Positions 145 through 56,526 of a stretch of 56,526 bases of DNA are shown here, piece by piece. The notes beneath the pieces are model-generated. The model searched no databases. It saw only the letters and a program-made list of their open reading frames with translations, and had not been told where the DNA came from. The position numbers were made by a program, and so were the translations under genes. This DNA is from a virus. Its lineage: Duplodnaviria > Caudoviricetes. The stretch is taken from positions 1-56,526 of IMG/VR virus record IMGVR_UViG_3300036785_000842, one strand, 5' to 3'. The first letter of the stretch is position 1. Each line of letters begins with the position of its first letter.

Positions 145-179
145 CGTCTTTCGGGGGGGATTTTCGGGGGGGGCCGGGG

Positions 180-245
180 CCGGTCCTCGGGGACAGTTCC
201 CGAGCCTGGGGCAAAAGCTTTTTTGTGCCCGCGGGCAGCTGTCAA
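180..245 (-). promoter_or_regulatory. candidate late promoter/leader upstream of terL
   Basis: TTGACA at 245-240 overlaps the stop of the upstream regulator gene, followed by hairpin CTCGGG-AACTGTC-CCCGAG. The -10 element is not clear. Confidence 0.35.
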
Positions 246-1965: not shown

Positions 1966-2129
1966 AATGGCACATTTCGGTCTTTTCGGCCGACGGCCGG
2001 CGGCTGCTCTTCGCCGCTGGCACCACCCGGTCCGCGGCCCTCGAGCTCGCCACCGAGGCGCGCCGGCTCAATTCGACCGTCAAGATCTTCCTGCGCGCGC
2101 CGACCGGCGAGACGACCGAATTCGTCTAG
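1962..2129 (+). CDS. hypothetical protein (55 aa)
   Basis: GTGA overlap with the recombinase stop; GC3-rich codons. Confidence 0.5.
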   Translation: MKWHISVFSADGRRLLFAAGTTRSAALELATEARRLNSTVKIFLRAPTGETTEFV

Positions 2130-2139
2130 CCTCGCCGGC

Positions 2140-2427
2140 TCATAGCGGATCGAATCCTCCCTTGGTTGCTCGGCACAGCCAGCTCGACAGCGCCGCCCGG
2201 TCGGTCAGCTGATCGACATCGGCCCGCAATTTGGCGAGCCATACCTGTCCCTCGGGCCCGAAATATGGGTTTTGATCCCATATCCCCGCCATGATCCACT
2301 GGCGGCAATAAGCGCGCAAGGCCGCGATCTGCTGCAGGGTCAGCTCGCGGTCGTTGAGGTAAGCCTCGACCGCAGGCCACAGCACCCCGCTGGTCTCATA
2401 CATCCAATAACCCGGCTCAGTCGCCAT
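2140..2427 (-). CDS. hypothetical phage protein
   Basis: MATEPGYWMYETSGVL...; protein-like composition, co-directional with neighbours. Confidence 0.65.
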   Translation of the reverse strand: MATEPGYWMYETSGVLWPAVEAYLNDRELTLQQIAALRAYCRQWIMAGIWDQNPYFGPEGQVWLAKLRADVDQLTDRAALSSWLCRATKGGFDPL

Positions 2428-3054: not shown

Positions 3055-3588
3055 TCATGGCTCCTCCTCGCTGCGTGGCATGTCGCTGACCAGCTCCAGG
3101 TGCTCGAGCACCTCGTCCTGAGCAAACGACCAAGGCAAGGTGACCGGTTCGCCCTCGGGCGATCCTGGGGGCTTTACGGTCAGCGTGGCGAGGCGCTGAT
3201 GGCAGTAGGGCATGGTCGCGGCATAAACGCCGCTCCACCAGCGAGCGGCCTCGAAGCGGTCGCAGCCCAAGACCTTGGCGAGCTCAGGCAATACTCCTGG
3301 TGCAAGGATAGGTAACGCCGAGATCTCGACGCCACGAGCCAGAGGATCGCCAAAGCGCGACTTGTAGAACCGCGCCGCCTCGTCTGTTCGTTTATTGCGT
3401 GCGCCGACCGGTCGACCTGGGCCGCGCTGCGCTACCACCTGCGCGGGTGCACCATTGCTCGGCCGCGGCGCCTCGAACAGCTCGAACAGCTCCAGCTGGT
3501 CGAGGTCCTCGGTGAGCCGCCGCAACTCCGCCGCGCGCGCCTCGCGGACCACGTCGGCCAGCGCCTGCTTATGCCCGGTTTCGGCCAT
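3055..3588 (-). CDS. putative terminase small subunit-like protein
   Basis: RGPGRPVGARNKRT motif (GRPxGxxNK type) and AATMPYCHQRL (cf. A..PY.HP.L of TerS-like proteins); upstream of terL on the same strand. Confidence 0.55.
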   Translation of the reverse strand: MAETGHKQALADVVREARAAELRRLTEDLDQLELFELFEAPRPSNGAPAQVVAQRGPGRPVGARNKRTDEAARFYKSRFGDPLARGVEISALPILAPGVLPELAKVLGCDRFEAARWWSGVYAATMPYCHQRLATLTVKPPGSPEGEPVTLPWSFAQDEVLEHLELVSDMPRSEEEP

Positions 3589-6583: not shown

Positions 6584-6897
6584 GCCAGCGCTCCGGGATA
6601 TTGCTCGTCGATCAGGCTGATCACGCGCGCGCTAAATCGATCGCTGAGCTCGCGCGAAGCCCATCTGAGGATCGGCTGATATTCCGCCTTGCCGTTGACG
6701 TCGCGCTTCTGGCGGCCGGTCTCGTCGAGCACCGGCCTGCCCGGCAGCGCCACCCACGGACTGCCGTTATTGCCGATCATCACCGGCAGGTCGGTCACGA
6801 TCAGCCCCGGCGGCAATTCGACCGTGCAAAACCCGCGCAACGAACCCTTGACCACCTCCTTGAACGAAACCAGCCGTAGACGCGCCTGTCCGTTCAC
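6580..6897 (-). CDS. SpoVG-like nucleic-acid-binding protein
   Basis: GSLRGFCTVEL..GLIV.D..V...G.PWVALP...Y.PI..W pattern. Confidence 0.65.
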   Translation of the reverse strand: MNGQARLRLVSFKEVVKGSLRGFCTVELPPGLIVTDLPVMIGNNGSPWVALPGRPVLDETGRQKRDVNGKAEYQPILRWASRELSDRFSARVISLIDEQYPGALA

Positions 6898-8855
6898 GGC
6901 GCGCGCCCTTCACCCCCGGGCACCGCCTTGCGCTGCTGCAGATAATGAAATACGGCTGGCGCCTCGAGCGGGTCGGCCTCGATCGGCAAGTCTCCAGGCA
7001 GTTCGAGGATGCGGTTTCCGAGCAGATTGGTCTTCATATACACGGCGACCCCGGCGTCTCGGGCTTGCTGCACCACATCGACAATCCAATCGAACGGCGG
7101 GCGCCACTCCGGCGTCGGCGGGTCATTCTTTGTGGATGACGCACCACCAATGACCATCCAGTGAAACCGCTCGAGATGCGTGAATTGTAGCGGCTCCAAC
7201 ATCGGCTCGATGGACAACCATCGGATCTTTGATCCGACATGTTCAAAACCAGCCTCGGCAGCGGCGACACGCGCCTGTAGGTCGACCGTGGTTCCCATCC
7301 AGCAATTGGCCGGGATATCGAACTCAGCCATACGCTTAGGAAACTTGGTCAAACACAGGAAATTCCACTGCGGCGCAGCGCGGATCTCGGTAAGGATCGC
7401 CTCGATCCATTCCGTCGGCACCCAGCGGCCAAAAACATCGGCCATCGAGCCCATGAAGACATTACGGAAGCGCGCGTCGGTCTTCGCCTTGTCCGGGACT
7501 TTCATAAACCGCGGTGCCAATAGCGAGCGCGGCTTCAGCGTCGGCGCAAAACCATTAGGAAAAACCTTCGCCCGGTCGAGATCATTGGCGATCTCCCGAG
7601 CATAGCAATAGGGGCAAGTGTGCTCGCAGCCGGTGATCGGGTTCCACGACCACTTCGCCCACTCGATCTCGCGGCTTTCCTGCGGGTTGAAGGTGGCCTT
7701 GCTGACACTGCTGGGCGCAGGCGGCAACAACGCCAGCTGGGTCGCCTGGTCGAGGGTCTGCCACTCCTCCAGGGCGACGTAGTTGAGCAGCCGCAAACTG
7801 CGCGCGCGGGCGGCCTCGGTGGCGCGCTGCGCCTCTCTGTGCAGGCGCTCGACCCCGGCTAAGTTCTGGCGACAGCGGGCAACTACCGCATCGAAATATT
7901 CAAGCGCTTCAGCGTAGGTACCGAAATAGGGTTTGTCCATCGACATTGACCCCTCGAAGAGCTGAAGCGTGCCAGCGAGCGGGTCGGCCTCATAGCCCTC
8001 TAATTCCCCTTGTCTTCGCGCGATCGCATCAAGCTCGGCAATGGTGCGCGCTTCGGCCTTGATGACCCGATCGATATCGGCCGGTGTCGCAATGCCAGCG
8101 ATCAGCGCCTCGGCAATGTCGAGGTAAAACGGCGGCTCACTGATGTTCTTGAACCGCACCACCCGAGCCCGTGTCTCCTCGACCGTCCATGCCCGTTTGG
8201 TCGCAACCGTGACGGTGCCGCCGGGCTCCCGCAATGTCGCTTCGGACGGCAGCATCGCCTCGACCAAGGCCGGCCACAGCCACTCGGGGGCGGCGTGGAT
8301 CTCGACGAGAACGCGGAAGTGACCAGCGAGATCACCCAGATCATTATACACGTGTAGAACCGCAGAAGCGACCCGAGCAGCCATCACCTCGTGACGGACA
8401 GTCTGGTATTCCTTCTCACGTCCCACACTGGCGGCGTACGCTTTGACATCGAGGTCTTCCGGCTTGGCGACGCTATGCAGCGCGTGCAGGCCGTGCTCGA
8501 GGGCGGTCAGCTCGCTTTGCGCATTGCTCGTCACCAGCATCATGTACGCCGTCGCGTCGTCGAGCTCACGCACCCAGCACGGTACCCGATCCAGCCCGGC
8601 GCGCTTGGCAGCACTCCAGCGGTGATGCCCCGAAACGATCTGCCAGCCCCCGCCCAGCGGGCGAACGATCAGCGCGTGCGCCGGGTCAAACCCCGAGGCC
8701 AGGCCCGCTGCTATCGCCTCGATGACGTCGATGCGCTCGCCGAGCCGCGGATTGTCGGGATGCGGACTGAGGCGAGCCACCTCGAGCCATTCCGGGGCTG
8801 ATGGCGTGGCGAATGAAATTAGCCGGAGGTCGTTCGGGGATAAAATTGGTGACAA
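6894..8855 (-). CDS. ParB-N domain fused to DUF5131 (Gp37/Gp68-like, radical-SAM-type Cys motif)
   Basis: LSPHPDNPR...IVSGHHRWSAAKRAG.. ParB motif; WSWNPITGCEHTCPYCYA, FMGSMADVF, LTKFPKR, WMGTTV, SIEPML. TTG start at 8855 chosen from SD AAGGGAG. Confidence 0.88.
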   Translation of the reverse strand: MSPILSPNDLRLISFATPSAPEWLEVARLSPHPDNPRLGERIDVIEAIAAGLASGFDPAHALIVRPLGGGWQIVSGHHRWSAAKRAGLDRVPCWVRELDDATAYMMLVTSNAQSELTALEHGLHALHSVAKPEDLDVKAYAASVGREKEYQTVRHEVMAARVASAVLHVYNDLGDLAGHFRVLVEIHAAPEWLWPALVEAMLPSEATLREPGGTVTVATKRAWTVEETRARVVRFKNISEPPFYLDIAEALIAGIATPADIDRVIKAEARTIAELDAIARRQGELEGYEADPLAGTLQLFEGSMSMDKPYFGTYAEALEYFDAVVARCRQNLAGVERLHREAQRATEAARARSLRLLNYVALEEWQTLDQATQLALLPPAPSSVSKATFNPQESREIEWAKWSWNPITGCEHTCPYCYAREIANDLDRAKVFPNGFAPTLKPRSLLAPRFMKVPDKAKTDARFRNVFMGSMADVFGRWVPTEWIEAILTEIRAAPQWNFLCLTKFPKRMAEFDIPANCWMGTTVDLQARVAAAEAGFEHVGSKIRWLSIEPMLEPLQFTHLERFHWMVIGGASSTKNDPPTPEWRPPFDWIVDVVQQARDAGVAVYMKTNLLGNRILELPGDLPIEADPLEAPAVFHYLQQRKAVPGGEGRAP

Positions 8856-9567
8856 GCAGAATTCTCCCTTGCATGGCTTTGGTGCCGACCGTGACTTTCG
8901 ACTGCAGGACATAGCTGCGATCCAGCCGCCGCGCCCATTCCAGCGGATCGAGCCGCCAGCGATGCCGACGCTTGACGGCCTCGGCGGCCTCGGGTCCGGA
9001 TCGCGCCCATCGCGGCGCTTCTGGATCGGTCGAATTGCCGGTTACCCCATTGACGCGACTGCAAGCGCTCTCGTTGACGACAATCAGGAAATCCGCTTTG
9101 GGCGCCTCGCGGGCGATGCGAGCCAGCACCTCGTCGCCGTGATCCTTTGGCCCATTCGGGTCGTTCAAAACCAATGCATAGGCGTAATCCGCGAACCGAA
9201 CCGGCCAGTTCAGCAAGGCCTTGTGGTTGCCCCCAACATGCGCGGCGTGACCTTCCTCGGTGAGCCGCTTGATCAGGGCCCTGCGTGCTTCCGGCGATTT
9301 CTCGAAGAGGACCAGGTCACAGACGATCTTACGTCGGGCAAACCTCGCCGCCGCATCGATCGCCACAAATGGGGTGGCCCTGCTTTCCTCCCCGCGCCAA
9401 AAATCCCGCTGACGTGCCTGTGCCCCGGCTGCATCTCCGGCGTGCATGTCGACGATCAGTACCCGATCACCCGGCCGCAGGAAGATGAATGCTATAGCGA
9501 CCTGGATCCCCGCCAACTCTTTGAGCAGATCGTGCTTTATATGCGATAGGAGATTGATCCCTTTCAC
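8686..9567 (-). CDS. tcmP: three-Cys-motif partner protein (TcmP-like, SAM-MTase-like fold)
   Basis: KHDLL, IVDMHAG, LFEKS, LNDPNG motifs and adjacency to DUF5131. Confidence 0.7.
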   Translation of the reverse strand: MKGINLLSHIKHDLLKELAGIQVAIAFIFLRPGDRVLIVDMHAGDAAGAQARQRDFWRGEESRATPFVAIDAAARFARRKIVCDLVLFEKSPEARRALIKRLTEEGHAAHVGGNHKALLNWPVRFADYAYALVLNDPNGPKDHGDEVLARIAREAPKADFLIVVNESACSRVNGVTGNSTDPEAPRWARSGPEAAEAVKRRHRWRLDPLEWARRLDRSYVLQSKVTVGTKAMQGRILLVTNFIPERPPANFIRHAISPGMARGGSPQSASRQSAARRAHRRHRGDSSGPGLGV

Positions 9568-12551: not shown

Positions 12552-12616
12552 CCTATTGTAGGCTAGTCAATATGAGGCTATATAGGGCGCGGGGCAGCGA
12601 CCCCGAGGAGAACCCC

Positions 12617-13684
12617 TTGGCACTCAAGCTCGTACCGCCCGGCACCCGCGGCAACAAATTCTGGATCGCCTACGGCCGGCACAACGACAAGGTCGTGTCG
12701 ATGTCGACCGGCCAATTGCAGCGAACCCGGGCCGAGGCCTGGCTGCGCCAGCAGCTCAAGCCGGGCGGGGCCCTCTGGGAGCGCGCGGTCGACGCCCAGC
12801 GCAATTTTGCCGCGGCGGCCGAGGCCTATGCGCTGGCCAAGGACATCGATCTGGCCCTGCCGCAGGGCAGCAAAGAGCGCGCCGCGGCGCGCGACATCAA
12901 CCGGCTGATCGAGGTCCTCGGCCACCGCCAGGTGGCGCAGATCAACGAATTCGATCTGCACCAGGCGGCCAAAGAGATCTTCCCGACCCAGCAGGCCGAG
13001 ACGCGCAACCGGCATGCGCTCAAACCGGCCCTGGCAATCCTCCACAAGGCGACCAAAGCGTGGAAACTGCAGCGCATCGAGGCCGCGATGTTCCCCGAGA
13101 AAGCGCCGGCGACCCGTGCGGTGGCGCTGGAGATCGACGAGCTCTTGTTACGGGCGATCCCGGCCGGCGCCCGCGCCTCGGCACCCGGTTCCTCGGTGGC
13201 ATTGCGGCGGCTGGCGGTGCTGTGGTTTCTGCGCCAGGGGACGCGGATCAGCGACACCTTGCAGATCACCTGGTCCGACATCGATCTCGACCCGGCTCGC
13301 GAGACCTGCCGCCTCCTGGTCGGCAAGACCCAAAGGTGGCGCGAGACCGCACTCGACCCCGATGTCGCCGAGGCGTTGCGGGCGATCCCCGAGGACCAGC
13401 GCCAGGGTCCGCTCTTCCCGTGGCGGCAAAAGAGCGGTGTCTATCGCTGGCTGCGCCCGCTGGTCCGCGAGCTCGGGATCCAATTCACCCCGCACCAGGG
13501 GCGCCACACCCTCGGCAAGCGCTTGAACGATGCCGGTGCCGGGCTGCGCACGATCATGGAGGCGCTGGGGCACGCCGATGTCAAATCGTCGCTGCGCTAC
13601 CAGGCCGGCGACATCGCGATCGTGCGCCTGGCACTGCACAACCTGGCGGCCAAGCGGGCCCAGGGTCGGACAGGTGCGGCATGA
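12617..13684 (+). CDS. int: tyrosine recombinase / phage integrase
   Basis: Catalytic set GTRISD (R), K, HQGRH, LGH, SSLRY; TTG start after SD GAGGAG. Confidence 0.92.
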   Translation: MALKLVPPGTRGNKFWIAYGRHNDKVVSMSTGQLQRTRAEAWLRQQLKPGGALWERAVDAQRNFAAAAEAYALAKDIDLALPQGSKERAAARDINRLIEVLGHRQVAQINEFDLHQAAKEIFPTQQAETRNRHALKPALAILHKATKAWKLQRIEAAMFPEKAPATRAVALEIDELLLRAIPAGARASAPGSSVALRRLAVLWFLRQGTRISDTLQITWSDIDLDPARETCRLLVGKTQRWRETALDPDVAEALRAIPEDQRQGPLFPWRQKSGVYRWLRPLVRELGIQFTPHQGRHTLGKRLNDAGAGLRTIMEALGHADVKSSLRYQAGDIAIVRLALHNLAAKRAQGRTGAA

Positions 13685-15932: not shown

Positions 15933-16131
15933 AATAGGTGACCTCCGGGTCACCCCCTGAAAGCTGTGGAGTTCGCGGAAGCTGTTGCCTGTCAGCGAGT
16001 GCCGGCAACCATCGGAACCCGGAACAACTCAAAACGGCCAGGATGCAGGACCAACCTCGGCAAATGCAAACTTCCTCACCGAGTCGGAGTGGCGCCCGAT
16101 CCGCGAAACTACAAATGTCACGCCGGGCCTG

Positions 16132-16857
16132 TCAACGCCAGGCCTGGCGCTTGTCGAGGCGCCGGTCGATCTCGCTAGCGATGCCGGCCCCCGGCGAGGA
16201 CTGCGAAGACTTCTTTTTGCCGGGTGCGGCGATGACACGCTCGCCTTTATGGAGCAGATGCGGGCCGGTCTTTGTGACCCTGCCACCGCTCTTCATCGAG
16301 GGTATGCGCGGCGGTGCTGCGGCGGCCATCTGCGTCGCCTGGTTCGGGCTCATCATCGGCACGCTGCCCGGGGCACCCTGCGGCACCGCATTCATGTCGA
16401 TCGTTGGTGCAGCCCCCCGCGGCGGTGCGGCTGCGGCCAGCTGCATCGCCTGGTTCGGGCTCATCATCGGCATGCTGCCCGGGGCACCCTGCGGCACCGC
16501 ATTCATGTCGATCGTTGGTGCAGCCCCCAAGGGGGGTGCGGCGGCGGCCATCTGCATCGCCTGGTTCGGGCTCATCATCGGCATGCTGCCCGGGGCACCC
16601 TGCGGCACCGCATTCATGTCGATCGTTGGTGCAGCCCCCAAGGGCGGTGCGGCGGCGGCCATCCGCATCGCCTGGCTTGGGCTCATCATCGGCATGCTGC
16701 CCGCCGCACCCTGCGGCACGGCATTCATGTTGATGCCCGGCGCGGCGGCACCACCGGCGATTTGCCCAGCGGCCATTTGCCGGGCCTGCGGCTGCAGCAT
16801 CATCTGCTCCATCAGATACTGCAAAAGCTGGGGAGGTATTTGGCGTGTTTCGCTCAT
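16132..16857 (-). CDS. Met/Pro/Ala-rich repeat protein with GGxVxxTGxxxLHxGExV motif
   Basis: Four 37-aa repeats, then MKSGGRVTKTGPHLLHKGERVI and tail IASEIDRRLDKRQAWR. Confidence 0.75.
   Translation of the reverse strand: MSETRQIPPQLLQYLMEQMMLQPQARQMAAGQIAGGAAAPGINMNAVPQGAAGSMPMMSPSQAMRMAAAAPPLGAAPTIDMNAVPQGAPGSMPMMSPNQAMQMAAAAPPLGAAPTIDMNAVPQGAPGSMPMMSPNQAMQLAAAAPPRGAAPTIDMNAVPQGAPGSVPMMSPNQATQMAAAAPPRIPSMKSGGRVTKTGPHLLHKGERVIAAPGKKKSSQSSPGAGIASEIDRRLDKRQAWR
16305..16735. repeat. 111-bp coding tandem repeat, about 4 copies
   Basis: Unit encodes IDMNAVPQGAPGSMPMMSPNQAMQMAAAAPPLGAAPT; period is a multiple of 3. Confidence 0.9.
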
Positions 16858-16867
16858 CAGCGGGGCC

Positions 16868-17041
16868 TCAGCGCACCGGCAGGAGCTCGCGGCCAAAGAC
16901 CGCCAGCCCGAGGCAAACAAACAGCACCAGATAAATGACATGGGCTGACCACGGCGGGGCGCGATCGCCCCAGGCGCCCCACGGCGGCCCGATCACAAAC
17001 ATCAGGATGAGCAGCACCCAGAACAGGATTTGTATGACCAC
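16868..17041 (-). CDS. small two-TM membrane protein (holin candidate)
   Basis: IQILFWVLLILMFVIG...VIYLVLFVCLGLAVFG. Confidence 0.6.
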   Translation of the reverse strand: MVIQILFWVLLILMFVIGPPWGAWGDRAPPWSAHVIYLVLFVCLGLAVFGRELLPVR

Positions 17042-19540: not shown

Positions 19541-19661
19541 GTGTAAAGTTTGCCAGATTCCGGTGTCGGCCGATCTTACGATATTCCTGGTTTGTCCCAG
19601 CTATGCTCCGAGCGTGAAATCATAAAAATCAAGAGCTTGCCACTTTGGCTCGATCTTTGCA
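19541..19661 (+). promoter_or_regulatory. sigma54 promoter with IHF site and upstream activator sites
   Basis: TTGGCTCGATCTTTGCA with exact GG-N10-GC (19647-19660); IHF consensus AATCAAGAGCTTG (19627-19639); TGTAAAGTTTGCCAGA and inverted CGTAAGATCGGCCGACA about 100 bp upstream. Confidence 0.75.
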
Positions 19662-19705
19662 TTCGTGTTAAATCGGGCAACAACGCCCGCAGAAGGGAGT
19701 TTCAC

Positions 19706-20392
19706 ATGCACAAGCAATTGCTCGTCGGCGCCGCCCTTCGGAGCTTTATTAGCGCAGCAGGGGCGCTCGGCATGCTCGCCAGCTCGGCCAACGCCACCCT
19801 GACATTATCGGTCACCGACAACGGCACCGCCATTGCGGGGTGCGCAACGACCACCGCCTCGCCTCTGTCGATTACCTGCAGCAACGCCAACTTCAGCGCG
19901 ATCCAAGTCAGCGCGCAAGGCACGCCCACCGTGCCCTCGCCCGATCTCGGAACGATCACGATCAGCGCCACCGCCGGGGCGCTCAGCGCGACCCACATCT
20001 TGGACGCCATGCTGACCCAGACCGGGCTCAGCAATTTCCCCGGCGGCGCAAGCTCGACCACCTTTACGGAAAACTCGCTCATCGGCCTGCCCGGCCCGAC
20101 GATGTTCAACATGCTGTTCAACGGCGCGTCCATCGCCAGCGCGACATTGCCGGTTAGCGCCGCTCCGCAGACCGCGGGGCCGTTTCTCGTGAACCTCGCC
20201 GCAGTACCAGGATCGTTCACCGACGAACAGACGATCTCCGTAGACTTCGGGCCGTCGATCGCGACGCAACAGTCTGAAGCGGGCGCCCAGTTCCAAGCGG
20301 TTAGCGCGCCCGAGCCGGCCTCGCTGGCCATGCTCGGCAGCGCTCTGATCGGCATGGGTTTCGCCGCCTACCGCCGCCGCCGGCGCTCCTAA
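19706..20392 (+). CDS. PEP-CTERM sorting-domain exported protein
   Basis: Signal peptide ending SANA; Ser/Thr-rich body; C-terminal APEPASLAMLGSALIGMGFAAYRRRRRS. Confidence 0.92.
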   Translation: MHKQLLVGAALRSFISAAGALGMLASSANATLTLSVTDNGTAIAGCATTTASPLSITCSNANFSAIQVSAQGTPTVPSPDLGTITISATAGALSATHILDAMLTQTGLSNFPGGASSTTFTENSLIGLPGPTMFNMLFNGASIASATLPVSAAPQTAGPFLVNLAAVPGSFTDEQTISVDFGPSIATQQSEAGAQFQAVSAPEPASLAMLGSALIGMGFAAYRRRRRS

Positions 20393-43657: not shown

Positions 43658-44689
43658 CTAGTTAATCAGCACGCCCTGCAAAAACGCGTTCGACATAGTC
43701 ATGTTGCCGGCCCACCCGACCAGTTTGACCATTGCGTCCTGATTGACGGTAAACCGGTCAGGATTGAGCGGGACCATGTTGCGGTCGCGGTGCGGTCTCA
43801 GGAAGATGTAATCTGTATTGAGAAAGTACATATGATTACTTGGAGCGCCACTCAAGGTTGCCCAGGTGATGCCGCCGCCGATCGTCGTCCCGGTGCCGGC
43901 CGCGACCCCCTGGAAGCCACCATCGAACACCACGTCGGCATCCATGAATTTGAGGCTCTGGAACCCGGCCACCCCCTCGTTCGGGTTGGTGATCCGCTGG
44001 ATCGCCTGCAGGCTCTCCCAATAGAATGTGAAATACGCGTTATCCGCGATCATAAGATCCGGCCTATCGGTGCCGCGTACCTGGTTTAACCACTGCCGGT
44101 TCATCATGGTCTGCATCGTTGCCGTACCGGGTGTAAGACCCGCCGCAGCAAAGGAGCCCACATAGGCCCGCCAGAACGGCCACAGCCCGCGGTCGATGCC
44201 GCCGACCACGCCGGCGGTCTCGACATCGGCGACGAGCAATTGCAGACCGCCGATCTGCTTGCCGCCGTCCAACGTGCCATTGCCGTAGCAGTCGCCCGAG
44301 ATGCCGTTGGTCATCGTCCGCTCGGCATTGCCGATGCGGCTTTCCAACAGATCGATCATGCGCTCGACGCCGCTGTTCTGCAGCTCTTCGAGACCGCTGA
44401 TCGAGACCGCGACCGCGGCCTGCGCCCAGGGATATTGCGCCGCAGTGAAGACATCGGACGGCGAAATATTCAATATGTCGTAACCCGAATATCTCTTGTA
44501 AGTCCCGTTTTCTGAGTACTCCAATTCCTGGACGATCGCCTGCCCGCCGTCGACCGGCTTGATCTTGTTGCGCTGGCTGAGCTTGGCGAGGATCGCGTTG
44601 TTCTTGGTGACGTTGTCGGCGAGCTTGCGACTTCTATTGAACAGGGTAGTCGTCGTAATTTCGCCCCAGTTCGGATTTGGTGAAGGCAT
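43658..44689 (-). CDS. major capsid protein
   Basis: 343 aa; LADNVTKNNAIL, YSGYD, SISGLEEL.NSG, GGIDR, YFLNTDYI; follows the scaffold. Confidence 0.9.
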   Translation of the reverse strand: MPSPNPNWGEITTTTLFNRSRKLADNVTKNNAILAKLSQRNKIKPVDGGQAIVQELEYSENGTYKRYSGYDILNISPSDVFTAAQYPWAQAAVAVSISGLEELQNSGVERMIDLLESRIGNAERTMTNGISGDCYGNGTLDGGKQIGGLQLLVADVETAGVVGGIDRGLWPFWRAYVGSFAAAGLTPGTATMQTMMNRQWLNQVRGTDRPDLMIADNAYFTFYWESLQAIQRITNPNEGVAGFQSLKFMDADVVFDGGFQGVAAGTGTTIGGGITWATLSGAPSNHMYFLNTDYIFLRPHRDRNMVPLNPDRFTVNQDAMVKLVGWAGNMTMSNAFLQGVLIN

Positions 44690-47336: not shown

Positions 47337-48305
47337 TTACACCAGGCCGCCGATATCGCGCGACAAGAGGTGCGAGGTGCGCGCCTGTTCCAGCGCCGCG
47401 CGCTGCTGGATCTCCTGACCCTGCTGCTCGATCTCGGCCATATGCAGCATGCCTTCCTGCTGCAGTTTCTTGGCGTCGCCCTGGGCCTCTATGTAGGCCT
47501 TCATCAACTGCACGGCGTTGGCCTGTTGCTGCGCCTGGACCTTGGCTTGATCGATCTGCTGATCGCCTTGCGCGGTGCGCGCCTCGGTCACGATCTCCAT
47601 CGGCGATTTGGTGTTGCCCCGCTGCTGCTGCTGCGGGTTTGGCGTCGGCGGCGATTGCGCGAGCGTCCTGAAAGCCTGCTCGAACATCGGTTCGAGCCCG
47701 CGCGCGGCCGGGAACGCCCGCACCCCGAACATCACCAGGGCCATCGCCAGGGGTGCGACCGCCGGGTTCTGCTGCACTTCGGGGATGATCATCTGCAGCA
47801 TCGGCATGATCGCCTGCAGAAACTCGGTGCGGGCAGCCTTTTCGGCCTGTTCGTCCGGAGCGATCGTCGAATCGGCCTCGATGTCGACCTTGTAGCCGGT
47901 CTGCACATCGTGCCGGACCATGTGGCAGGCGCCGAGAAACTGGGTTCGCCGGCGCGTGTTTTCGGCATCCCAGGCGGCTTTTTGCGCTCGCCATTGGGCA
48001 AAGGCCGGGTTCGGCATCATCCCCGGCGGCACCATACCGAGCGGCCCCTGAGCGATTGTCGAAGGGCCCCCCGGCGCCGGCATCCCGCCCGGTCCCGGCA
48101 GCCCACCGCCGGGACCTCGGGCAGGGAGACCGGGTCCCGGCGGTGGGAGACCGGGTCCCGGCGGTGGCAGACCGGGCCGTCCCACCACAGAGGGCCCGGT
48201 CACTCCCGGCCCGGCAGGCATCCCACCGCCGCCCAAAAGCGGCCCCCCTGGTGGCATCGCCCCACCGCCCGGAAATCCGACGACGTTGCTACGCTGTTCG
48301 GACAT
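47337..48305 (-). CDS. portal protein, C-terminal part (crown/barrel-like)
   Basis: Gly/Pro linker, then GYKVDIEADSTIAPDEQAEKAARTEFL...FGVRAFPAAR.LE and a Gln-rich coiled coil; own SD GAGAGGA. Confidence 0.75.
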   Translation of the reverse strand: MSEQRSNVVGFPGGGAMPPGGPLLGGGGMPAGPGVTGPSVVGRPGLPPPGPGLPPPGPGLPARGPGGGLPGPGGMPAPGGPSTIAQGPLGMVPPGMMPNPAFAQWRAQKAAWDAENTRRRTQFLGACHMVRHDVQTGYKVDIEADSTIAPDEQAEKAARTEFLQAIMPMLQMIIPEVQQNPAVAPLAMALVMFGVRAFPAARGLEPMFEQAFRTLAQSPPTPNPQQQQRGNTKSPMEIVTEARTAQGDQQIDQAKVQAQQQANAVQLMKAYIEAQGDAKKLQQEGMLHMAEIEQQGQEIQQRAALEQARTSHLLSRDIGGLV

Positions 48306-48322
48306 GGCTAATCCTCTCTGCC

Positions 48323-48607
48323 ATGGCCTTACCTCCTCCGATCCCATTGCGCCCCGCCGACCGCCCCGAGACCTGGGCGGAATATCAGCACCGGCGCCGG
48401 ATCCTCGCGCTGTGGCGTTCGATCGGCGATTTCGTGGTCAAGGGTCACTTCGCCAGCTTTGCCGACCTCATCCTGCTGGCACCCTACCGCCAGCCGATGC
48501 TGCCGCCGCGGCCGTTCGTGCCGTTCACCACGCTATTGGGCGGCGGGATCGTGCCGGGATCGCCTCAGGGCGAGCCGATCACGCTGCCGTGGTCCCCCGG
48601 AGAGTGA
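48323..48607 (+). CDS. small antisense protein ending in a TerS-like motif
   Basis: GC3-rich codons; PGSPQGEPITLPWS vs PGSPEGEPVTLPWS in 3055..3588; no obvious SD. Confidence 0.55.
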   Translation: MALPPPIPLRPADRPETWAEYQHRRRILALWRSIGDFVVKGHFASFADLILLAPYRQPMLPPRPFVPFTTLLGGGIVPGSPQGEPITLPWSPGE

Positions 48608-48687
48608 ATCGTTCGGCAGAGTGTAACTTTTTGCGCTCTCGTTTGCGGTGGGCGGCCCTTCGACAAGCTCAGGAGGCCGGCGGCGAT

Positions 48688-51489
48688 CTAGCGTCCGGGC
48701 ATAAAAAATGCCGGCGGCTCGCCGGCAAATGGATCGTGATCGACAGGAATGAGGTTGGGCGGCGGCTGCGCGGCCTGCGCCGGGTTGGTCAATGCTCCGT
48801 AGCCGGCGCCGAGAAGACCGGCGCCGGCCAGACCGGCGAGCGGCCTTAGTTGCCGCCCCCGCGCGGCGGGAGGGGTCTGCTCGTAGCGCTCGACGCGGGG
48901 TTTGAACTGGTCGATCCAGGCTTGGGTGGCGATCCGCTGCTGCTCGGCGATGTCGCGGACTTTTTGCCGCGCGTCCTCGAAAGCACCAGCTCGCTCGCCG
49001 GCGCTCCAACGTTGCGCTCGAACTCCTCCGGGTCTCCCGACATCATCCTGACCGGCATTGCGCTGACCTTCCCAAAAATCGTTGATGTGGGTGTCGTAAT
49101 TCTCGATGGCGTTTTGGCTCGGATGCTCAACGTAATATGACTGATACGCCCGCGGGTAAACTTGGATATTCCGCCCCGGCTGGTCAAATGCGCCGATCGC
49201 CGCAGCCTGCACCTGATCGCCCGACGGCGGCAGGACACCTTGATCGGTAAACGCCGGATGAACATCGACGAGGATGCCGTTGGGGCGACGCGTCGCGCTG
49301 ACCTCGCCACCGTGCCCGATCAATCGCTGGAATTGCTGCACTTGCGCGGTCGTGGTCGGGACCGCTCCCGGACCTGTCTCGGGGACGAACACCGAATAGG
49401 TTCGCAATCGGCCGCCGGCGTCCGCCGTCAGCGGCATCGTCTCAAAATGCGAGGCCGGCGCTGCCTCCTGGCCAAAACCTTCGCCGAGTGCGGAGAGCAC
49501 CGGATGGATCTGCTCGGGGGTCAAGCTGATCCGGTCGGAGCCCGCCTGCGCCCACATCGGGATGCGCAAATTTGGTGAGATGTCGCCCTGATAGGTGCCC
49601 CAGCCATTGTTGTCGACCCGGCTGACCGCGGCCCCCTTCCGGCCGATGACCGGTGCCACCAATTGCGAGACCACCGATTTCCCGCCGCCGGTCGTCACCG
49701 CATCCATCGCATCGCGCTGCAGCCGTTCCATCTTGTAGCGCGCGGTGTTGGCCCAGGGTGGCGCATCGGGACCGGCAGGCGGCAGGCGGCTTAAGAGGTC
49801 GGTGGCCTCCCGGCCCTCGGGCGTCATCTTTGTCGCGGTCTCGATCGTCGCCGTCGGCGTGGCGAGGTATTGCGCGCGCGTGCCGCTCATCAAATTCGGC
49901 ACATCGGGGTGCCCCAGCACCTCGGGGCTGAACAGCCCCTTGCTGGTGTCGACCCCGGCCGCCTCGAGCTGAGGCTTGATGTGGTTGTCCATCACATCGG
50001 CGTAATCGTCGCTGACCCCGATCTTGGTCGGGTCTTTCGTGCCGCGGTAATGGGTCCAGGCCGGCGCCTGGATCTGCCAGCTCTCAAACGGGTTTTCGGT
50101 GCCGGCCGCGACCCCGGGCCGCGCGGCGTTCTCGGCATCGCGAAAATTCTGGGTGAATTGCGAGGCGAGCGCATAGAGGTCGGGGCGCTTGGCCAGCTCG
50201 TCGGGATCCATGCCGAGGACCTCGCCATGCTGGCGGTCGTTGACCGAGATCGGCGGCTTGTCGTCGGCACCGGCGATGTGCAGAAACGTGCCGGTGTAAT
50301 TGGCGGTCTTGGGCGCCTCCATGCCGGTGGTCAACGCCATGCGCACCGTTCCGGGCTGTATCAGATCGGTCGAGATCGGCTGACCTTGCTGGTGCTCGGC
50401 CAGCACCCCGACGGTGCGCTGCAGGTTCTGCAGTGGTTCAGCGCTAGGCGAGGTCGCCGCGGTCACATTGAGCGCGTCGCGCATGTCCTCGGGGTGTTGG
50501 TCGAGCCCTTCGCTCTGAAACTTGCGCGCGCCGTTTTCGTACCAGTAACGCATCTTTTGCGGCTGGCTCAGCGCGTCGTTCCAGAATTTTGGCGTGTTCG
50601 GACCGACTTGCGGATTGTCCGCGAGGTATTTGTCGAGCTTCTCAGCCTGCTCCGGGCTCCACGAGCGGACCGTCTCGACCGCATCGTCCCAGGCTTTCTG
50701 CAGATCGGCCGCACTCGACTTCATGCCGCCGATCGACTGCGACATGTCGAGATCGGTCCAATCGGCGCCGCCGACCACCGGCACCGTGCCGACCCCCTCC
50801 TTATAGGGTCCGATCCGGCGGTTTTCGACCGGCAGGACCGTGTCGAGATCGCTGTTGCGGATCAATCCGCTGCGCGGCGGTGTGCCGGGTGCTGCAGCAG
50901 CGGGCCCCGCTGCCGCCTCGCCGGGCGGTATCGTCGACACCAACGCCGGCGCACCAATCGGCTCGGGCGGTTGGTTGTGACCAATCCCCGCCGGCGGACC
51001 CAGTTCAGCCAGCGGATCACCCGGCAGCTCACCCGGCAGCGGTACGCGACCACCGCGGCCAGGCCCGCGGCCGATGCCGGCGCCGACCGAGCCGCTCGGC
51101 GCTGCACCGGCGACATGCATCAGACCAAAGCTGGCGAGCTCCTGCGGCGTCATCTCGGGCAACCCGGTCTCGGTATTGCGGCCGAGCAGCCGGTTTTCCT
51201 GCTCGAGATACCCCGGGATACTGAGACTGCCGTAAATGCCGCGCGCAATGTCGGCCACATCGCCGCCGATCGCCTCTCCGGCACCACGCAGAACCCGGCC
51301 GGTTGCGCTGACCGCCGGCGCGATCGCCCTCGACAAATTGGCCATGCCAACTGCCTCGGGATCGCCCCAAAAACCGGTCGGATCGGGATCGCGCGGCAAA
51401 GGCGGCGACCGCATCGGCGAGGGCTGGTTGGGATCGCCAAATCCGCCATCGCCAAAATCCGGGTCGTAGTCGACCGGGATCAACGCCAT
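48688..51489 (-). CDS. large putative virion/injected protein with DUF7178-like (HhH-GPD-like) domain
   Basis: YWYE...AATSP...N...PKTANY...ISVNDRQH...QIQAPAW pattern; LIPVD(Y/H)DP motif at both termini. Confidence 0.55.
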   Translation of the reverse strand: MALIPVDYDPDFGDGGFGDPNQPSPMRSPPLPRDPDPTGFWGDPEAVGMANLSRAIAPAVSATGRVLRGAGEAIGGDVADIARGIYGSLSIPGYLEQENRLLGRNTETGLPEMTPQELASFGLMHVAGAAPSGSVGAGIGRGPGRGGRVPLPGELPGDPLAELGPPAGIGHNQPPEPIGAPALVSTIPPGEAAAGPAAAAPGTPPRSGLIRNSDLDTVLPVENRRIGPYKEGVGTVPVVGGADWTDLDMSQSIGGMKSSAADLQKAWDDAVETVRSWSPEQAEKLDKYLADNPQVGPNTPKFWNDALSQPQKMRYWYENGARKFQSEGLDQHPEDMRDALNVTAATSPSAEPLQNLQRTVGVLAEHQQGQPISTDLIQPGTVRMALTTGMEAPKTANYTGTFLHIAGADDKPPISVNDRQHGEVLGMDPDELAKRPDLYALASQFTQNFRDAENAARPGVAAGTENPFESWQIQAPAWTHYRGTKDPTKIGVSDDYADVMDNHIKPQLEAAGVDTSKGLFSPEVLGHPDVPNLMSGTRAQYLATPTATIETATKMTPEGREATDLLSRLPPAGPDAPPWANTARYKMERLQRDAMDAVTTGGGKSVVSQLVAPVIGRKGAAVSRVDNNGWGTYQGDISPNLRIPMWAQAGSDRISLTPEQIHPVLSALGEGFGQEAAPASHFETMPLTADAGGRLRTYSVFVPETGPGAVPTTTAQVQQFQRLIGHGGEVSATRRPNGILVDVHPAFTDQGVLPPSGDQVQAAAIGAFDQPGRNIQVYPRAYQSYYVEHPSQNAIENYDTHINDFWEGQRNAGQDDVGRPGGVRAQRWSAGERAGAFEDARQKVRDIAEQQRIATQAWIDQFKPRVERYEQTPPAARGRQLRPLAGLAGAGLLGAGYGALTNPAQAAQPPPNLIPVDHDPFAGEPPAFFMPGR

Positions 51490-51493
51490 CGGT

Positions 51494-53335
51494 TCAGGCC
51501 ACCATCAGGTATTTGCCGGGACGACGCGGATCGGGGACGTAGTGCCTGCCGTCGCGCGCCAGCCGGGCTCCCGGCGGCAACGGCGGACCGGGCGGCGCCA
51601 GCATGGGCGCCCGGACGGCACCGGGAGGCACCTGGGAAATCATCGGGCCCGGCCGTCCGGGAACCCCGACGGCCGGCGCCGGTAGACCGGCGCCGGGTGG
51701 TGCGCCGGCGCCGCCGGGCATCCCTGGGCCGCCCGTCGACAGAATACCTGGACGAGACGGCGGCGGTCCCGCTGCCGGTGCCGGGGCCGGCGCAGGGAGA
51801 GCCGGTCCGCCGCCCATCGCCGGACCCGGTGCGGGGGTCGGCGCCGGGATAAACATCGGCGGCGGCGGCGGCAGCGCCGGCAGCGGTTGCGGCAACCCGG
51901 ACATCCGCGACAATGTCTCCGGGTCGAAATGGCGCGCCATGACGGCCCCGCGCAATCGCATCAGATCGCGGGCAAAGCGCCCGACGTCCTTTTGCGCGCG
52001 GGTGATCCGGCGGGTGGCGAATTGGGTCTTGAGCTGCTGGGCGCCGAGCGTCTCGATCGGGTTGGTCTCGCCGCGCAGAATGTCGGCGATGCCGGTCGTC
52101 TGATAGATGATCTGCAGGAGGCGCTCGCGGGCGTCGTAGAGCTGAATCATCACCCGGGCGATCTGCTCGACCGGCAACCACTGGATCAGGTTCTGCAATC
52201 CCCCCTTGTCGCCGGCGAACCCGGCCCAATCCTCGACCGGGATCAGGCGGTTTTCGCTGCTGTCGTCGACCAGCTGCTGCAACACCATCTTTTCGGATCC
52301 GGCATAGACGCCGGCGACCTTGAGCGCGCGGGTCAATTTGTCGATCCGGCTGGTGATTACATCGAGCTCCTGGGCCTGATCTTGATATTCGATGTAATCG
52401 GCGACCGCTACCCGCTTGTTGTTTGTCGTCGTCGCTCTGAGGCAAGGCGGCGACGGGAAAAAGTCAGGTAATTCGAGCGGATCGTCCTGGGTGTCCAGCG
52501 GGCCCTCGGAATAGTTCTTGGCGACCCACACCGCCTGGTGCTTTTTCTTGTCCCAGATCTCCCAGACGGTGGCTTTTTTGAACATGTCGGCGAGCGGGCC
52601 CTGGTTGGCCTCGCTGGCCACCGCATGCACCCCCGAGGGGGTGTAATCGAGCCCGACCTTTTTGCCGAGCTCATTGCCAAAGCGCTCGCAGAGCTCGTCG
52701 CGCGTCATAAACGAGCGGTAGGCCTTCCACCAGATCTCGCCCTCGGTGCGCGCCGGGGTTTCCCGGTAATCCTCCCAAAAAACATAGCGGATCGGGGCGC
52801 GCTCGTTGGCGACCGGCTCAAACGTCGATGGATTGCCGTCCTCGTCGGGCTCGCCGTCCGGGTCCTCCTCGGGCGGCCCGAATTCGGGCTCGTAGAACAC
52901 CCGCGCGACCCCGCGGCCGGGCAACAGCCGGTCCTCGACCACCTGCTGCATGACCGCGTCGAACTCCTCGATGTCCTGCTCGTAATCGAGGGCGGCTTCG
53001 AGGATCTGCGCGCCCATCGCCGCCACCGGGTCGTTCTCGTCCTTGTGGCGGCGCGCGACATCGGGTTCCGGGGTGCGCCCGTAGAGCACCGGCTTTAGGG
53101 TTTCGATATTTGACCACAAAATGTTGTATTTTGCGGTACGCGCCTCGTTGGCGTCGCGCTCGTCGCGGTAGCGGTCGACGATGCGCCGGCCGCGCTTGAT
53201 AAAATCCTCGTCCTCGCGCTCGGCCAGGCTCAGCTGCGAGTTCCAGAACTGCCAGACCGCATTGGGTGTCGTGCCGAGGTCCTTGCGCTCCTCGATCGTG
53301 CCGACAACCGCGGTCGCCCCCTGCAGATCGGCCAC
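51494..53335 (-). CDS. portal protein, N-terminal part
   Basis: YNILWSNIETLKP.LY...P.P.V.RR, DRLLPGRG, WEIWDK, IYQTTGIADILRG...ETLGAQQLK; position after terL. Confidence 0.88.
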   Translation of the reverse strand: MADLQGATAVVGTIEERKDLGTTPNAVWQFWNSQLSLAEREDEDFIKRGRRIVDRYRDERDANEARTAKYNILWSNIETLKPVLYGRTPEPDVARRHKDENDPVAAMGAQILEAALDYEQDIEEFDAVMQQVVEDRLLPGRGVARVFYEPEFGPPEEDPDGEPDEDGNPSTFEPVANERAPIRYVFWEDYRETPARTEGEIWWKAYRSFMTRDELCERFGNELGKKVGLDYTPSGVHAVASEANQGPLADMFKKATVWEIWDKKKHQAVWVAKNYSEGPLDTQDDPLELPDFFPSPPCLRATTTNNKRVAVADYIEYQDQAQELDVITSRIDKLTRALKVAGVYAGSEKMVLQQLVDDSSENRLIPVEDWAGFAGDKGGLQNLIQWLPVEQIARVMIQLYDARERLLQIIYQTTGIADILRGETNPIETLGAQQLKTQFATRRITRAQKDVGRFARDLMRLRGAVMARHFDPETLSRMSGLPQPLPALPPPPPMFIPAPTPAPGPAMGGGPALPAPAPAPAAGPPPSRPGILSTGGPGMPGGAGAPPGAGLPAPAVGVPGRPGPMISQVPPGAVRAPMLAPPGPPLPPGARLARDGRHYVPDPRRPGKYLMVA

Positions 53336-54483: not shown

Positions 54484-56526
54484 TTAGATGCGCTCCGGGC
54501 GGCCGTTGCCGATAAAGCGCCCGCCGCGGTAGTAGCGGGCATCGAGCTTGTAGAGCTCGTCGATCGTCATCCCGCCGATACCGCGCTGCTCGGGCTCGAC
54601 GGGCTTGGGTTTCGAGCCGGGGACCATCTCGTCGAGCATCCGCCCGATCAGGCTGAGGGTGTCGACCTGATCGTCATATTTCCCGGCCGGAAAGCGCAGC
54701 AATTCATCCATCAGGGTCGCCGCCCAGGGCGCGCGCTTGGGCAGATAGACCTTGCCCATCGCCACCCGCCCGCGGATCGCCTGCGCCCGCACCGCCTTGT
54801 CGGCAGCCGAGCTGAACTGCTTTCTATGGGCATAGACCTTGCGCTCCAGCTGGCGCTTGGTCAGAAACGGCCCGACCCCCTTCTCGATCTGCCCCGATTC
54901 CTCGGCCCAGGTCAGGGTTTTCCACAGCTCCATCAGATCGATCACCGCCTCGACCCACTCGTTCGAGGCGACCTGCTTGCGCCACAGGTCGAGCAGATAG
55001 AGATCGTCGTTCGGATCGAGCCCGCCGACGATGTGCACGGTGTAATCGCCCATGTTGGCGCGCACCGCATAATCCGAGGCGCCATAGGTGCGCAGCTGAT
55101 CGCGCTGTGGCGCTGTGTCGTACCACCTCAGCCAGTCGTTTTTGAAATAATCGCCCGACTCGGGCATTGGCCGCTGCTGGTAGAGCGCCGACCAGTTGCG
55201 CGCGTCACGCTGGGCATTTTCAAACATTTCGGTTGTGAACCACTCGGGCCACAAGCGCTCACCGGGCACCCGCCCGAGGGCATCGCCGTCCTCGGCGATG
55301 GCCGGCAGGCTGACGACCTCCCACTGCTCGCCGCCGATCTTGGCGTCCTCGAGCAAGCGCCCGGCGAGGTCGTCCTCGTGCCACCGGGTGCCGATGTAGA
55401 GGAGCCCGGCCTCGGGCACGAGCCGCGTCCAGAAATCGGCCTTGTACCACTCCCACACATGCTGCCGGATCGTCGCGCTATCGGCCTCGGCCTTGCCTTT
55501 GACCGGGTCGTCGATGATCCCCAGATGAGCCCGGCGGCCGGTGACGCTGGCATCGACCCCGACCGCGAAGTACTCGCCGCCGCGGGCGGTTTCCCAGCGC
55601 CCGGCCGCCCCGCTGTCGCCCGACAATCCAAATCCGAATGTCCCGCGGAAGATCGGCGAGCCGACGATGTTGCGCACCCGGCGGCCAAACCGCTCGGCGA
55701 GCTCTTTGGAGTGACTGGCGGCGATCACCGACTGGGTCGGGTGATTGCCGATGTACCAGCTGGGGAACAACACGCTGCCGTAGGTCGATTTTGCCGACCC
55801 CGGCGGCAAAAAGAACATCAGCCGCTTGATTTCCCCCTTGGCCAAGGCCTCGAGCTTGGCCAGCAGCAGCTGATGATGGCGCGCCGGGCTGATATCGGGC
55901 ATCGCCAACGCCACCCAGCGCCCGAGATCCTGGCGGGCGGCCGCCCGATCGGCCTCGGCCTGCGCCTCGGTCGCGGTTTGCCCCAATTCGGCGTCGATAT
56001 TGACCCGGATCCAGTCGGGATCGCGCTCGCTGGCAAAGGCGGCGTAGGAAAACCCCTTTTTGGCCAATGCCGGCAGGTTTTCGGCCTCGGCCGAGCGTCC
56101 GCTCGGCTGGCGAAACAGCACCAGGTCGCCCGGCTCCTCGGGCCGGCGCACCAGCCAATGACCCGGCGGCGGCATCCGCGAGGAACACACGACCCCGGAC
56201 CACACCGCCCCGCCGGCGAGCGGGGTCGGGAAGGTGCCGGCGATCCGCTGCGCGTCCTCGAGCACCGTCTCGCTCAAATTGCGCGCGTCGTCGAGCCACA
56301 CGCCGGTCGCCGCGGCCGCGGCAAAGCGCCGGCGGTCTTGGGCATCGTCCATCCCGAGAAAATCGAGCTCCAGCGAGCGCTTGACGCCATCCTCCAGCCG
56401 GTAGCTCAGCGCAAAATGGCGGCCCTTCTCGTCATATTCGCCAAGGTCGAGCCAGGTCTTGATCGCCGGGATCGTGTAGCGTTCGAGCTCGCGCCGGATC
56501 GGCGCCACGACGAGCCATCGCCAGGC
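54484..56526 (-). CDS. terL: terminase large subunit (open at window end; extra N-terminal ATPase-like domain)
   Basis: LPPGSAKST (Walker A), GIIDDPVK (Walker B), GTRWHEDDLAG, YQQRP, nuclease ASDYA...DDQVD. Confidence 0.93.
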   Translation of the reverse strand, partial: AWRWLVVAPIRRELERYTIPAIKTWLDLGEYDEKGRHFALSYRLEDGVKRSLELDFLGMDDAQDRRRFAAAAATGVWLDDARNLSETVLEDAQRIAGTFPTPLAGGAVWSGVVCSSRMPPPGHWLVRRPEEPGDLVLFRQPSGRSAEAENLPALAKKGFSYAAFASERDPDWIRVNIDAELGQTATEAQAEADRAAARQDLGRWVALAMPDISPARHHQLLLAKLEALAKGEIKRLMFFLPPGSAKSTYGSVLFPSWYIGNHPTQSVIAASHSKELAERFGRRVRNIVGSPIFRGTFGFGLSGDSGAAGRWETARGGEYFAVGVDASVTGRRAHLGIIDDPVKGKAEADSATIRQHVWEWYKADFWTRLVPEAGLLYIGTRWHEDDLAGRLLEDAKIGGEQWEVVSLPAIAEDGDALGRVPGERLWPEWFTTEMFENAQRDARNWSALYQQRPMPESGDYFKNDWLRWYDTAPQRDQLRTYGASDYAVRANMGDYTVHIVGGLDPNDDLYLLDLWRKQVASNEWVEAVIDLMELWKTLTWAEESGQIEKGVGPFLTKRQLERKVYAHRKQFSSAADKAVRAQAIRGRVAMGKVYLPKRAPWAATLMDELLRFPAGKYDDQVDTLSLIGRMLDEMVPGSKPKPVEPEQRGIGGMTIDELYKLDARYYRGGRFIGNGRPERI

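Follow-up and report, generated by a model that had tools for sequence, protein, structure and literature searches.

A reversed phage mini-gene with a near-copy, in its predicted disordered tail, of a motif from a probable small terminase: a possible packaging decoy

How is a small gene that stands backwards among the head genes of a phage to be understood when its tail repeats, almost residue for residue, a piece of another protein of the same genome? The question is raised by the IMG/VR virus record IMGVR_UViG_3300036785_000842 (56,526 bp, linear, 94% complete by CheckV), the whole of which was analysed and is here called the window. On its + strand, an open reading frame (ORF) of 94 amino acids (aa), here called the mini-gene, carries near its end a close copy of a 14-residue motif from the C-terminal part of a 177-aa protein. 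The latter is probably the small terminase subunit (TerS) of this phage, and the firmest label for it is "TerS-position protein". The answer tentatively preferred below is that the mini-gene is an optional gene of the moron type, the disordered tail of which would mimic the TerS C-terminal motif and act as a decoy. The features on which the question turns are as follows.

48323..48607, + strand: mini-gene, 94 aa plus stop, ATG start, antisense to the flanking head-morphogenesis genes
48323..48457, + strand: N-terminal module (residues 1-45) defined by family conservation, a Pro-rich lead followed by a helix
48554..48595, + strand: copy of the TerS-position C-terminal motif, PGSPQGEPITLPWS, residues 78-91, in the predicted disordered tail
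3055..3588, − strand: 177-aa TerS-position protein, with 79 homologues
3127..3168, − strand: original motif, PGSPEGEPVTLPWS, residues 141-154 of the 177-aa protein, in its conserved block

The match between the two peptides is real and specific, and chance does not account for it. In a BLASTP comparison, PGSPQGEPITLPWS and PGSPEGEPVTLPWS have 12/14 identities and 14/14 positives (pairwise E 5e-7), which bears out the original prediction of 12 identical residues with several synonymous codon differences. A six-frame search of the window found only three events of at least 12/14 between distinct loci, namely the motif pair, a repeat with a spacing of 333 bp at ~16320-16746, and a Cys-rich pair at 22886/15543, and no match of this quality occurred in any of 24 shuffled windows (12 second-order Markov and 12 triplet shuffles). 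A genome search with the 33-aa motif region turned up a single further copy in the window, the tail of the mini-gene (E 1.6e-6), and none in the four relatives searched.

The copy lies in frame and spans exactly the invariant core of the motif; the DNA homology does not extend past these 42 nt, the local alignment stopping at 41 nt. Nine codons differ between the copies, seven synonymously and two conservatively (Q/E, I/V). Pac sites often lie inside TerS genes, and in the window one copy is inverted with respect to the other, so the conserved object might be a pac-like or regulatory DNA or RNA site inside the TerS-position gene that has been duplicated. This is very improbable: six of the nine mismatches are at the third base of a codon, and a seventh, at the first base of a Leu codon, is synonymous, a pattern that has the signature of a peptide rather than of a nucleic-acid site. 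Moreover, the identity is only 33/42 bases (79%), and an Rfam scan of the whole window gave no match.

The motif itself belongs to the best-conserved part of the 177-aa protein. This protein has 79 homologues at E ≤ 1e-3, and in an alignment of the 40 that are near full length (A1), the best-conserved block reads LATLTVKPxGSPDGEPVxLPWSYxEDEVLxHLEL, with G142 invariant and P140, P144, G146, P148, and W153 each conserved in at least 90% of the sequences. The block exists in two length forms, EPVxLPW and EPVS--W. The AlphaFold2 (AF2) model (predicted local distance difference test, pLDDT, 68) consists of a GRP-rich linker, three short helices (66-107), and a long helix (111-134), past which the C-terminus, which holds the motif, is predicted to be disordered. 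Such a model would fit the general plan of TerS proteins (PMC9611059): a helix-turn-helix DNA-binding domain, an oligomerisation helix, and a flexible C-terminal part. In lambda gpNu1 and P22 gp3 (PMC9611059), the C-terminal tail is short and flexible, comes after the oligomerisation helix, and is conserved in its own clade; the motif-bearing region of the 177-aa protein would be its counterpart.

The position of the gene was compared among relatives. Distant homologues (80 loci found) lie directly upstream of the gene for the large terminase subunit (TerL) in both of the complete ~39-kb genomes opened; in G015, the TerS-position gene overlaps TerL by 20 nt, and in G012 the gap is 213 nt. Within the window's own clade (G008, G007, G001, and G002), the gene is co-oriented with TerL and 2.7-9.5 kb upstream of it, a distance that sets it apart from the lambda and P22 TerS genes; in the window itself, the contig end falls between the two genes.

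The mini-gene is antisense, as originally described, since the − strand carries the genes on either side of it (47337-48305 and 48688-51489). It is very probably a real gene, because it belongs to a family with a conserved start, shows an excess of third-position differences, and has a gene-like GC content at third positions (GC3). Its GC1/2/3 values are 0.68/0.54/0.84, GC3 being 0.80 over the N-terminal half and 0.88 over the C-terminal one, against a range of 0.70-0.86 for eight known genes; the − strand frames opposite contain 2-4 stops. Over the first 36 codons, the window and its homologue in L002 differ at 6, 4, and 14 sites at codon positions 1, 2, and 3, respectively, which corresponds to 12 synonymous and 7 non-synonymous differences.

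A word-based search yielded five relatives of the mini-protein, and an exhaustive profile search yielded 51 representative clusters at E ≤ 1e-3 (42 at ≤ 1e-10), all of them small (52-249 aa). The match begins at residues 1-4 in 48 of the 51 representatives, and the signature at the very start is MAL(L/P)PPIP-x-(R/K)P-x-DR-x-ET-x-x-EY-x-x-RR, plus ~15 further residues. Alignment A2 has 17 invariant positions among residues 1-32 (M1 to R32); the window protein has every invariant residue of alignments A2 and A5, and the profile search recovers it (E 3.9e-22) as P0001, a gene call that starts 8 residues in. Past the N-terminal module, the sequences diverge completely, with a few tail modules recurring. 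The AF2 model made with the family alignment follows this division: residues 1-40 have a pLDDT of 82-94 and form an amphipathic helix at 18-39, and residues ~55-94 are disordered, with a pLDDT of ~48-57 in the tail. A disordered tail, as modelled here, is the usual setting for a short linear motif.

Members of the family were found in soil phage, provirus, and metagenome contigs, in both orientations and in unrelated contexts: in G011 the gene is on the same strand as its neighbours, in L004 it follows tail genes, and in L004-L006 generally the tail-gene context is quite different from that of the window. No match was obtained in Pfam (43 members searched), PHROGs, NCBIfam, PADLOC, or a PDB profile search. 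PADLOC-DB v2 gave no family at E ≤ 0.1 for the mini-protein, three family members, or the 177-aa protein; the ESM Atlas gave no usable feature match for the mini-protein, all structure rows having a template modelling score (TM) < 0.5; and a scan of genome contigs with the family alignment gave 149 pattern matches and no relative. Judged from these comparisons, this is a previously undescribed family, composed of a constant N-terminal head and hypervariable, swappable tails, in which the N-terminal module presumably carries the constant function. In one metagenome contig (L109), a member at 3-467 (+) lies ~1.3 kb upstream of a 107-aa ORF at 1826-2149 (+), which we take to resemble the P27-family small terminases.

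What might such a protein do with a piece of TerS? In the decoy reading, which is possible and no firmer than that, a conserved module would be joined to a disordered, fast-changing tail that presents the near-copy of the TerS-position motif. Once translated, this tail would be bound by whatever protein reads the motif in TerS. If lambda and P22 are a guide, in which TerS binds TerL via its C-terminal region (PMC9611059), the reader would be the N-terminal part of TerL. The decoy would then compete with TerS and damp or block the start of packaging. Its use might be to arm a lysogen against infection by related phages, or to slow packaging by the phage that encodes it. The opposite orientation would fit a gene that is transcribed alone and is possibly silenced by late transcripts running against it. 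When full-length TerL P0086 (86% identical to that of the window) was co-folded with the mini-protein, the scores were 0.12 and 0.05 against a mark of 0.32, a result that counts neither way.

A broader form of the decoy proposal would extend it to the whole family, as modular decoys with a constant head and swappable tails that copy motifs of essential assembly proteins. These would be expressed from the prophage, jam the packaging of superinfecting phages, be turned off by head-on late transcription upon induction, and co-evolve with the resident TerS. In this phage, the motif copied would be the one with which TerS docks on TerL, and the defence would work by molecular mimicry of a terminase subunit. 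It is an unlikely extension at present. The motif might also work through a partner other than TerL, such as the oligomer of the TerS-position protein (into which the tail would slot or which it would cap), the portal, the 933-aa protein encoded beside the mini-gene, or a host factor. In the conserved block, LATLTV comes directly after the long helix, a position that forms the oligomeric stalk in several solved TerS proteins (PMC9611059), and the mini-gene lies among portal-related genes and not beside TerL. However, the mini-protein has neither the preceding helix nor the LATLTV strand of the 177-aa protein (only an upstream "TL" might align), and gene neighbourhood alone is weak evidence of contact; another partner is rather improbable.

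A series of observations weighs against the decoy reading, beginning with the identity of the donor. The 177-aa protein has no TerS match in Pfam, PHROGs, or NCBIfam, its sole family match being phrog_15261, of "unknown function" (25 of the 40 members, best E 0.0016). A PDB profile search gave nothing below E 0.69; Foldseek against PDB and BFVD gave no TerS and some weak homeodomain/sigma-region-4-like rows (E ≥ 0.04); and tblastn against GenBank phages gave no relative. The protein differs from the lambda and P22 TerS in having no sequence or fold match to a solved TerS, and is at most a probable TerS. The motif had been called TerS-like in the original prediction; what stands of this is its conservation in a predicted disordered C-terminus and the TerS position of the gene in relatives, whereas the family, PHROG, PDB, and fold comparisons lend it no match.

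The expression of the mini-gene is a second difficulty, for which the surrounding features are needed.

54484..56526, − strand: TerL (Terminase_6N, phrog_38), 5' end cut by the contig end
53763..54542, − strand: 259-aa protein, encoded between the TerL and portal genes, the C-terminal domain of which resembles the alpha-CTD of RNA polymerase (PF03118, E 7e-11)
51494..53335, − strand: portal-N, 613 aa, matching phrog_12082 positions 14-474 (E 3e-142)
48688..51489, − strand: 933-aa gene between portal-N and portal-C, converging on the mini-gene, with homologues in relatives
48709..48727, − strand: terminator-like hairpin (8 pairs, 7 GC) with a T-run, tail TTTTTTAT, overlapping the last codons of the 933-aa gene
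48618..48639, + strand: weak hairpin of 9 pairs (2 G-U) followed by CGUUUG, starting 11 nt past the mini-gene stop
48306..48322: spacer of 17 bp between the divergent starts of portal-C and the mini-gene
47337..48305, − strand: portal-C, 322 aa from a homology-supported start, matching phrog_12082 positions 527-712, head-to-head with the mini-gene
43658-44689: major head protein, downstream of portal-C

The 17-bp spacer contains no Shine-Dalgarno sequence for the mini-gene (the AGAGAGG on its − strand serves portal-C), and a scan of 47900-49000 for one promoter type found no sigma-70-like site. Spurious ORFs are many in GC-rich DNA, and with neither a Shine-Dalgarno sequence nor a promoter consensus in place, the frame might be an accident, its conservation coming from a regulatory region upstream of portal-C. 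That there is no gene at all is nevertheless highly unlikely given the 51 clusters with one conserved start, the members in unrelated contexts and in both orientations (G011, L004), and the codon-position pattern, GC3, and confidently modelled N-terminal module. In L004, the homologue in a tail-gene context has a TATAAT hexamer (within 5960-6003) that ends 7 nt before the family ATG, a position that would fit a leaderless transcript; the mini-gene of the window has no such hexamer at this position. The hairpin at 48618..48639 is a possible weak terminator; the z-score of the 145-nt fold around it is a modest -1.39, and the scan for terminators passed it over.

A further difficulty, and the main one, is that the gene may be real and the copied motif functionless. 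By illegitimate or short-homology recombination, a patch of a TerS-position gene, perhaps that of a co-resident relative, would have entered the tail of the mini-gene, and the similarity would reflect selection in the donor gene and not in the mini-gene. This is the chief rival of the decoy reading and is nearly as probable. Tails are hypervariable in the family, and the motif is in none of the other 47 family sequences read, the tails of which differ widely. Even the closest protein relative, P0002 (75% identity), ends differently and without the motif. The P0002 tail was also considered as a frameshift of that of the window and rejected, the window's other two frames showing no resemblance to it by eye.

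The source of the patch need not be the resident gene. Two soil runs, X1 and X2, come from two studies; one of the runs may be the source sample of the window. X1 contigs that, judged by their flanks, look like TerS-position alleles match the 42-nt tail at 80% or more, above the 79% (33/42) of the resident copy, so the tail may have been captured from a TerS-position allele that had already diverged. If so, the synonymous differences would be explained without any selection on the mini-gene. With L011 as outgroup, two non-synonymous and two to four synonymous changes fall on the mini-gene lineage; these are too few to show selection on its tail. The original prediction had taken the synonymous differences as a sign of selection on the peptide. 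As far as the codons can tell, this holds for some part of the path between the two copies, not necessarily for the part within the mini-gene.

Points on the other side come from the patch itself and from a second lineage. The patch is in frame, covers the invariant core exactly, and has conservative replacements only, and GC3 is high along the whole tail, beyond the patch. When the mini-gene homologues of G001 and G002 are aligned with the TerS-position protein of their own genome, the top local match again lies in the tail and in the motif (E 0.023 and 0.034). The length form covaries, the window having EP(V/I)TLPW in both proteins and G001/G002 a short (E/D)PV-x-W in both. A large in-frame internal replacement separates the G001 and G002 mini-genes, yet the same C-terminal ~45 aa are kept; over the last 21 codons, there are three synonymous differences, one non-synonymous difference, and one in-frame codon indel. 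The second lineage thus appears to show the likeness of tail and motif, if more weakly. The G002 copies draw their serine codons from different families (AGC vs TCG) and have little DNA similarity, so that the evidence from this lineage amounts to a marginal peptide match; moreover, independent lineages with such a likeness number only two.

The distribution of the mini-gene also counts against the decoy reading. The gene is absent from G007 (99% complete) and G008 (96%), and a family member was found in only 3 of 80 portal-C loci within the flanks examined (G001, G002, and G011). G001 and G002 have it head-to-head with portal-C, as in the window, with a spacer of 17-20 bp and two more small genes; in G011, it is oriented like the genes beside it. 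Soil runs X1 and X2 both contain an empty-site form, in relatives that are ~90% identical, with 48290 joined to 48695 through 28 letters of other sequence. X2 also has variants that retain the 5' portion of the mini-gene and resume at the 933-aa gene's end (joints 48365>48718 and 48417>48731). The 933-like gene ends 3 nt before portal-C in G008, the gap is 75 nt in G007, and the gap spans 3 to 1608 nt across the 9 loci, out of 27 examined, in which the upstream gene has a recognisable end. Insertions recur where the 933-aa gene meets portal-C, a hot spot that varies in length and content, and the mini-gene is optional and dispensable, not a fixed part of the packaging machinery. The X2 joints, the variable gap, and the absence of the gene from complete relatives all speak for the recombination patch. 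A search for the TerS-position protein in G011 and G003, both of which are fragments, gave no match.

The original prediction had joined the mini-gene, a split portal, and a double-domain TerL into one regulated packaging module. A long TerL was found in all five of the relatives examined and a separate portal-C gene in all four searched; these are general features of the clade and the mini-gene is not. The module is not supported, because two of its three parts are general and the third is present only in some relatives, with an empty site in the two soil runs.

The two general features are of interest in themselves. The portal of Myxococcus phage Mx8 is a single 663-aa protein; portal-N is 36% identical to its residues 8-466, and portal-C aligns to its residues 495-649. 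Since this single portal aligns in part to portal-N and in part to portal-C, the portal of the window is, by homology, truly split by the 933-aa gene, a layout that also occurs in G001, G002, G007, G008, and G011. The portal-C start, MSEQRSN, was set by homology with MSDQR(N/S)N. Long Pro/Gly-rich stretches occur at the end of portal-N and at the beginning of portal-C. As for TerL, the window frame is open at its 5' end (674-680 aa, compared with 727-742 aa in relatives), with ~50 N-terminal residues missing. TerL in this clade has an N-terminal extension of ~230-290 aa before Terminase_6N, and homologues of ~495 aa exist without it.

The 933-aa protein between the two portal genes has no match in Pfam, PHROGs, or NCBIfam. 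It starts with MALIPVDYDPDF and ends with LIPVDHDPFAGEPPAFFMPGR. Of 27 related loci, 9 encode a homologue that closes with the motif (L/V)(I/V)PVDHDPF, and the L002 homologue opens with a similar one, so that this short motif recurs at both termini; the relatives in which a terminal motif was noted are L002, L097, L101, and L102. The hairpin at 48709..48727, if active, would cut the late transcript before portal-C.

Among known systems, the closest in kind are the morons, which are optional, independently transcribed genes between conserved late genes of temperate phages. The mini-gene is likewise small and reversed, lies at a variable junction (3 to ~1600 nt) between head genes of a phage with an integrase, and is present in some relatives and absent from others; of the collinear close relatives, G001, G002, and G011 have it and G007 and G008 do not. 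It differs from a typical moron in that no promoter or strong terminator was found and that a mere 17 bp separate its start from that of the divergent portal-C gene. Small optional genes that stand reversed in a late operon are of a known kind; the constant-head, swappable-tail family and the in-frame copy of a terminase-subunit motif are new.

A reversed gene that interferes with assembly has a precedent in Tab of Pseudomonas phage JBD26. According to PMC10884400, the tail-assembly blocker Tab is encoded between the terminase genes, on the strand opposite to theirs, and has a promoter of its own; the prophage expresses it in defence, and it blocks the virion assembly of invaders. The mini-gene shares with it the opposite-strand position within the packaging and morphogenesis region of a temperate phage; interference with assembly has been demonstrated for Tab and is proposed here for the mini-gene. 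Tab acts on tail assembly and has an anti-Tab partner gene, and no such partner was seen by the mini-gene. The comparison is one of layout alone, the mimicry of a TerS motif having no counterpart in the available part of the Tab description (PMC10884400).

Small proteins that perturb the TerS step by direct contact are known from satellites. The packaging hijacker Ppi of the Staphylococcus aureus pathogenicity islands (SaPIs) binds phage TerS. Rpp of the Gram-negative phage-inducible chromosomal islands (PICIs), another hijacker of packaging, does the same according to PMC6739421. A similar direct contact is proposed for the mini-protein, with the difference that Ppi and Rpp are satellite-encoded TerS binders, whereas the mini-protein is a product of the phage's own genome and looks like a fragment of TerS.

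In the literature searched, at the level of abstracts and selected passages, no description of a phage-encoded mimic of the TerS C-terminus was found. If the tail does compete with the TerS C-terminus, the mini-gene would encode a peptide mimic of a terminase subunit, and, in a group of phages whose terminases are all uncharacterised, its ~14 residues would help to locate where TerS and TerL touch. Should the motif be a mere recombination patch, the mini-gene would be an ordinary accessory ORF. Whatever the motif does, an undescribed small-protein family of soil phages and an insertion hot spot at the 933-aa/portal-C junction have been defined.

The window has a GC content of ~61-70%, and its genes are mostly on the − strand. 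Other features that bear on its setting are the following.

820-1194, − strand: GcrA-like regulator
1258-1965, + strand: serine recombinase of the resolvase/invertase type
6894-8912, − strand: 672-aa protein with ParB-N and DUF5131
12572-13684, + strand: tyrosine integrase
19550-20392, + strand: protein with a PEP-CTERM sorting motif

The tyrosine integrase, the serine recombinase, the GcrA-like regulator, and two relatives classed as proviruses in IMG/VR point to a temperate phage, and a lysogenic state is plausible because of the integrase and these two relatives. Relatives of the portal were found in phages of Bradyrhizobium, Rhizobium, Brucella, and Ruegeria, which, together with the GcrA-like gene, hints at an alphaproteobacterial host. 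With a 6.1-kb region as the DNA query, GenBank phages gave only one match, of 83 bp.

Two further likenesses within the window were seen in the six-frame search. The direct DNA repeat at ~16320-16746, spaced by 333 bp, is visible in five of the six frames and lies inside the ORFs 16132-16941 (−) and 15938-16948 (+). The Cys-rich peptide common to two + strand frames, at ~22886 (YPNCPDCGANIWQL) and ~15543 (YPKCPDCGANTWQL), matches at 12/14, and the two frames may encode paralogous zinc-ribbon-like small proteins.

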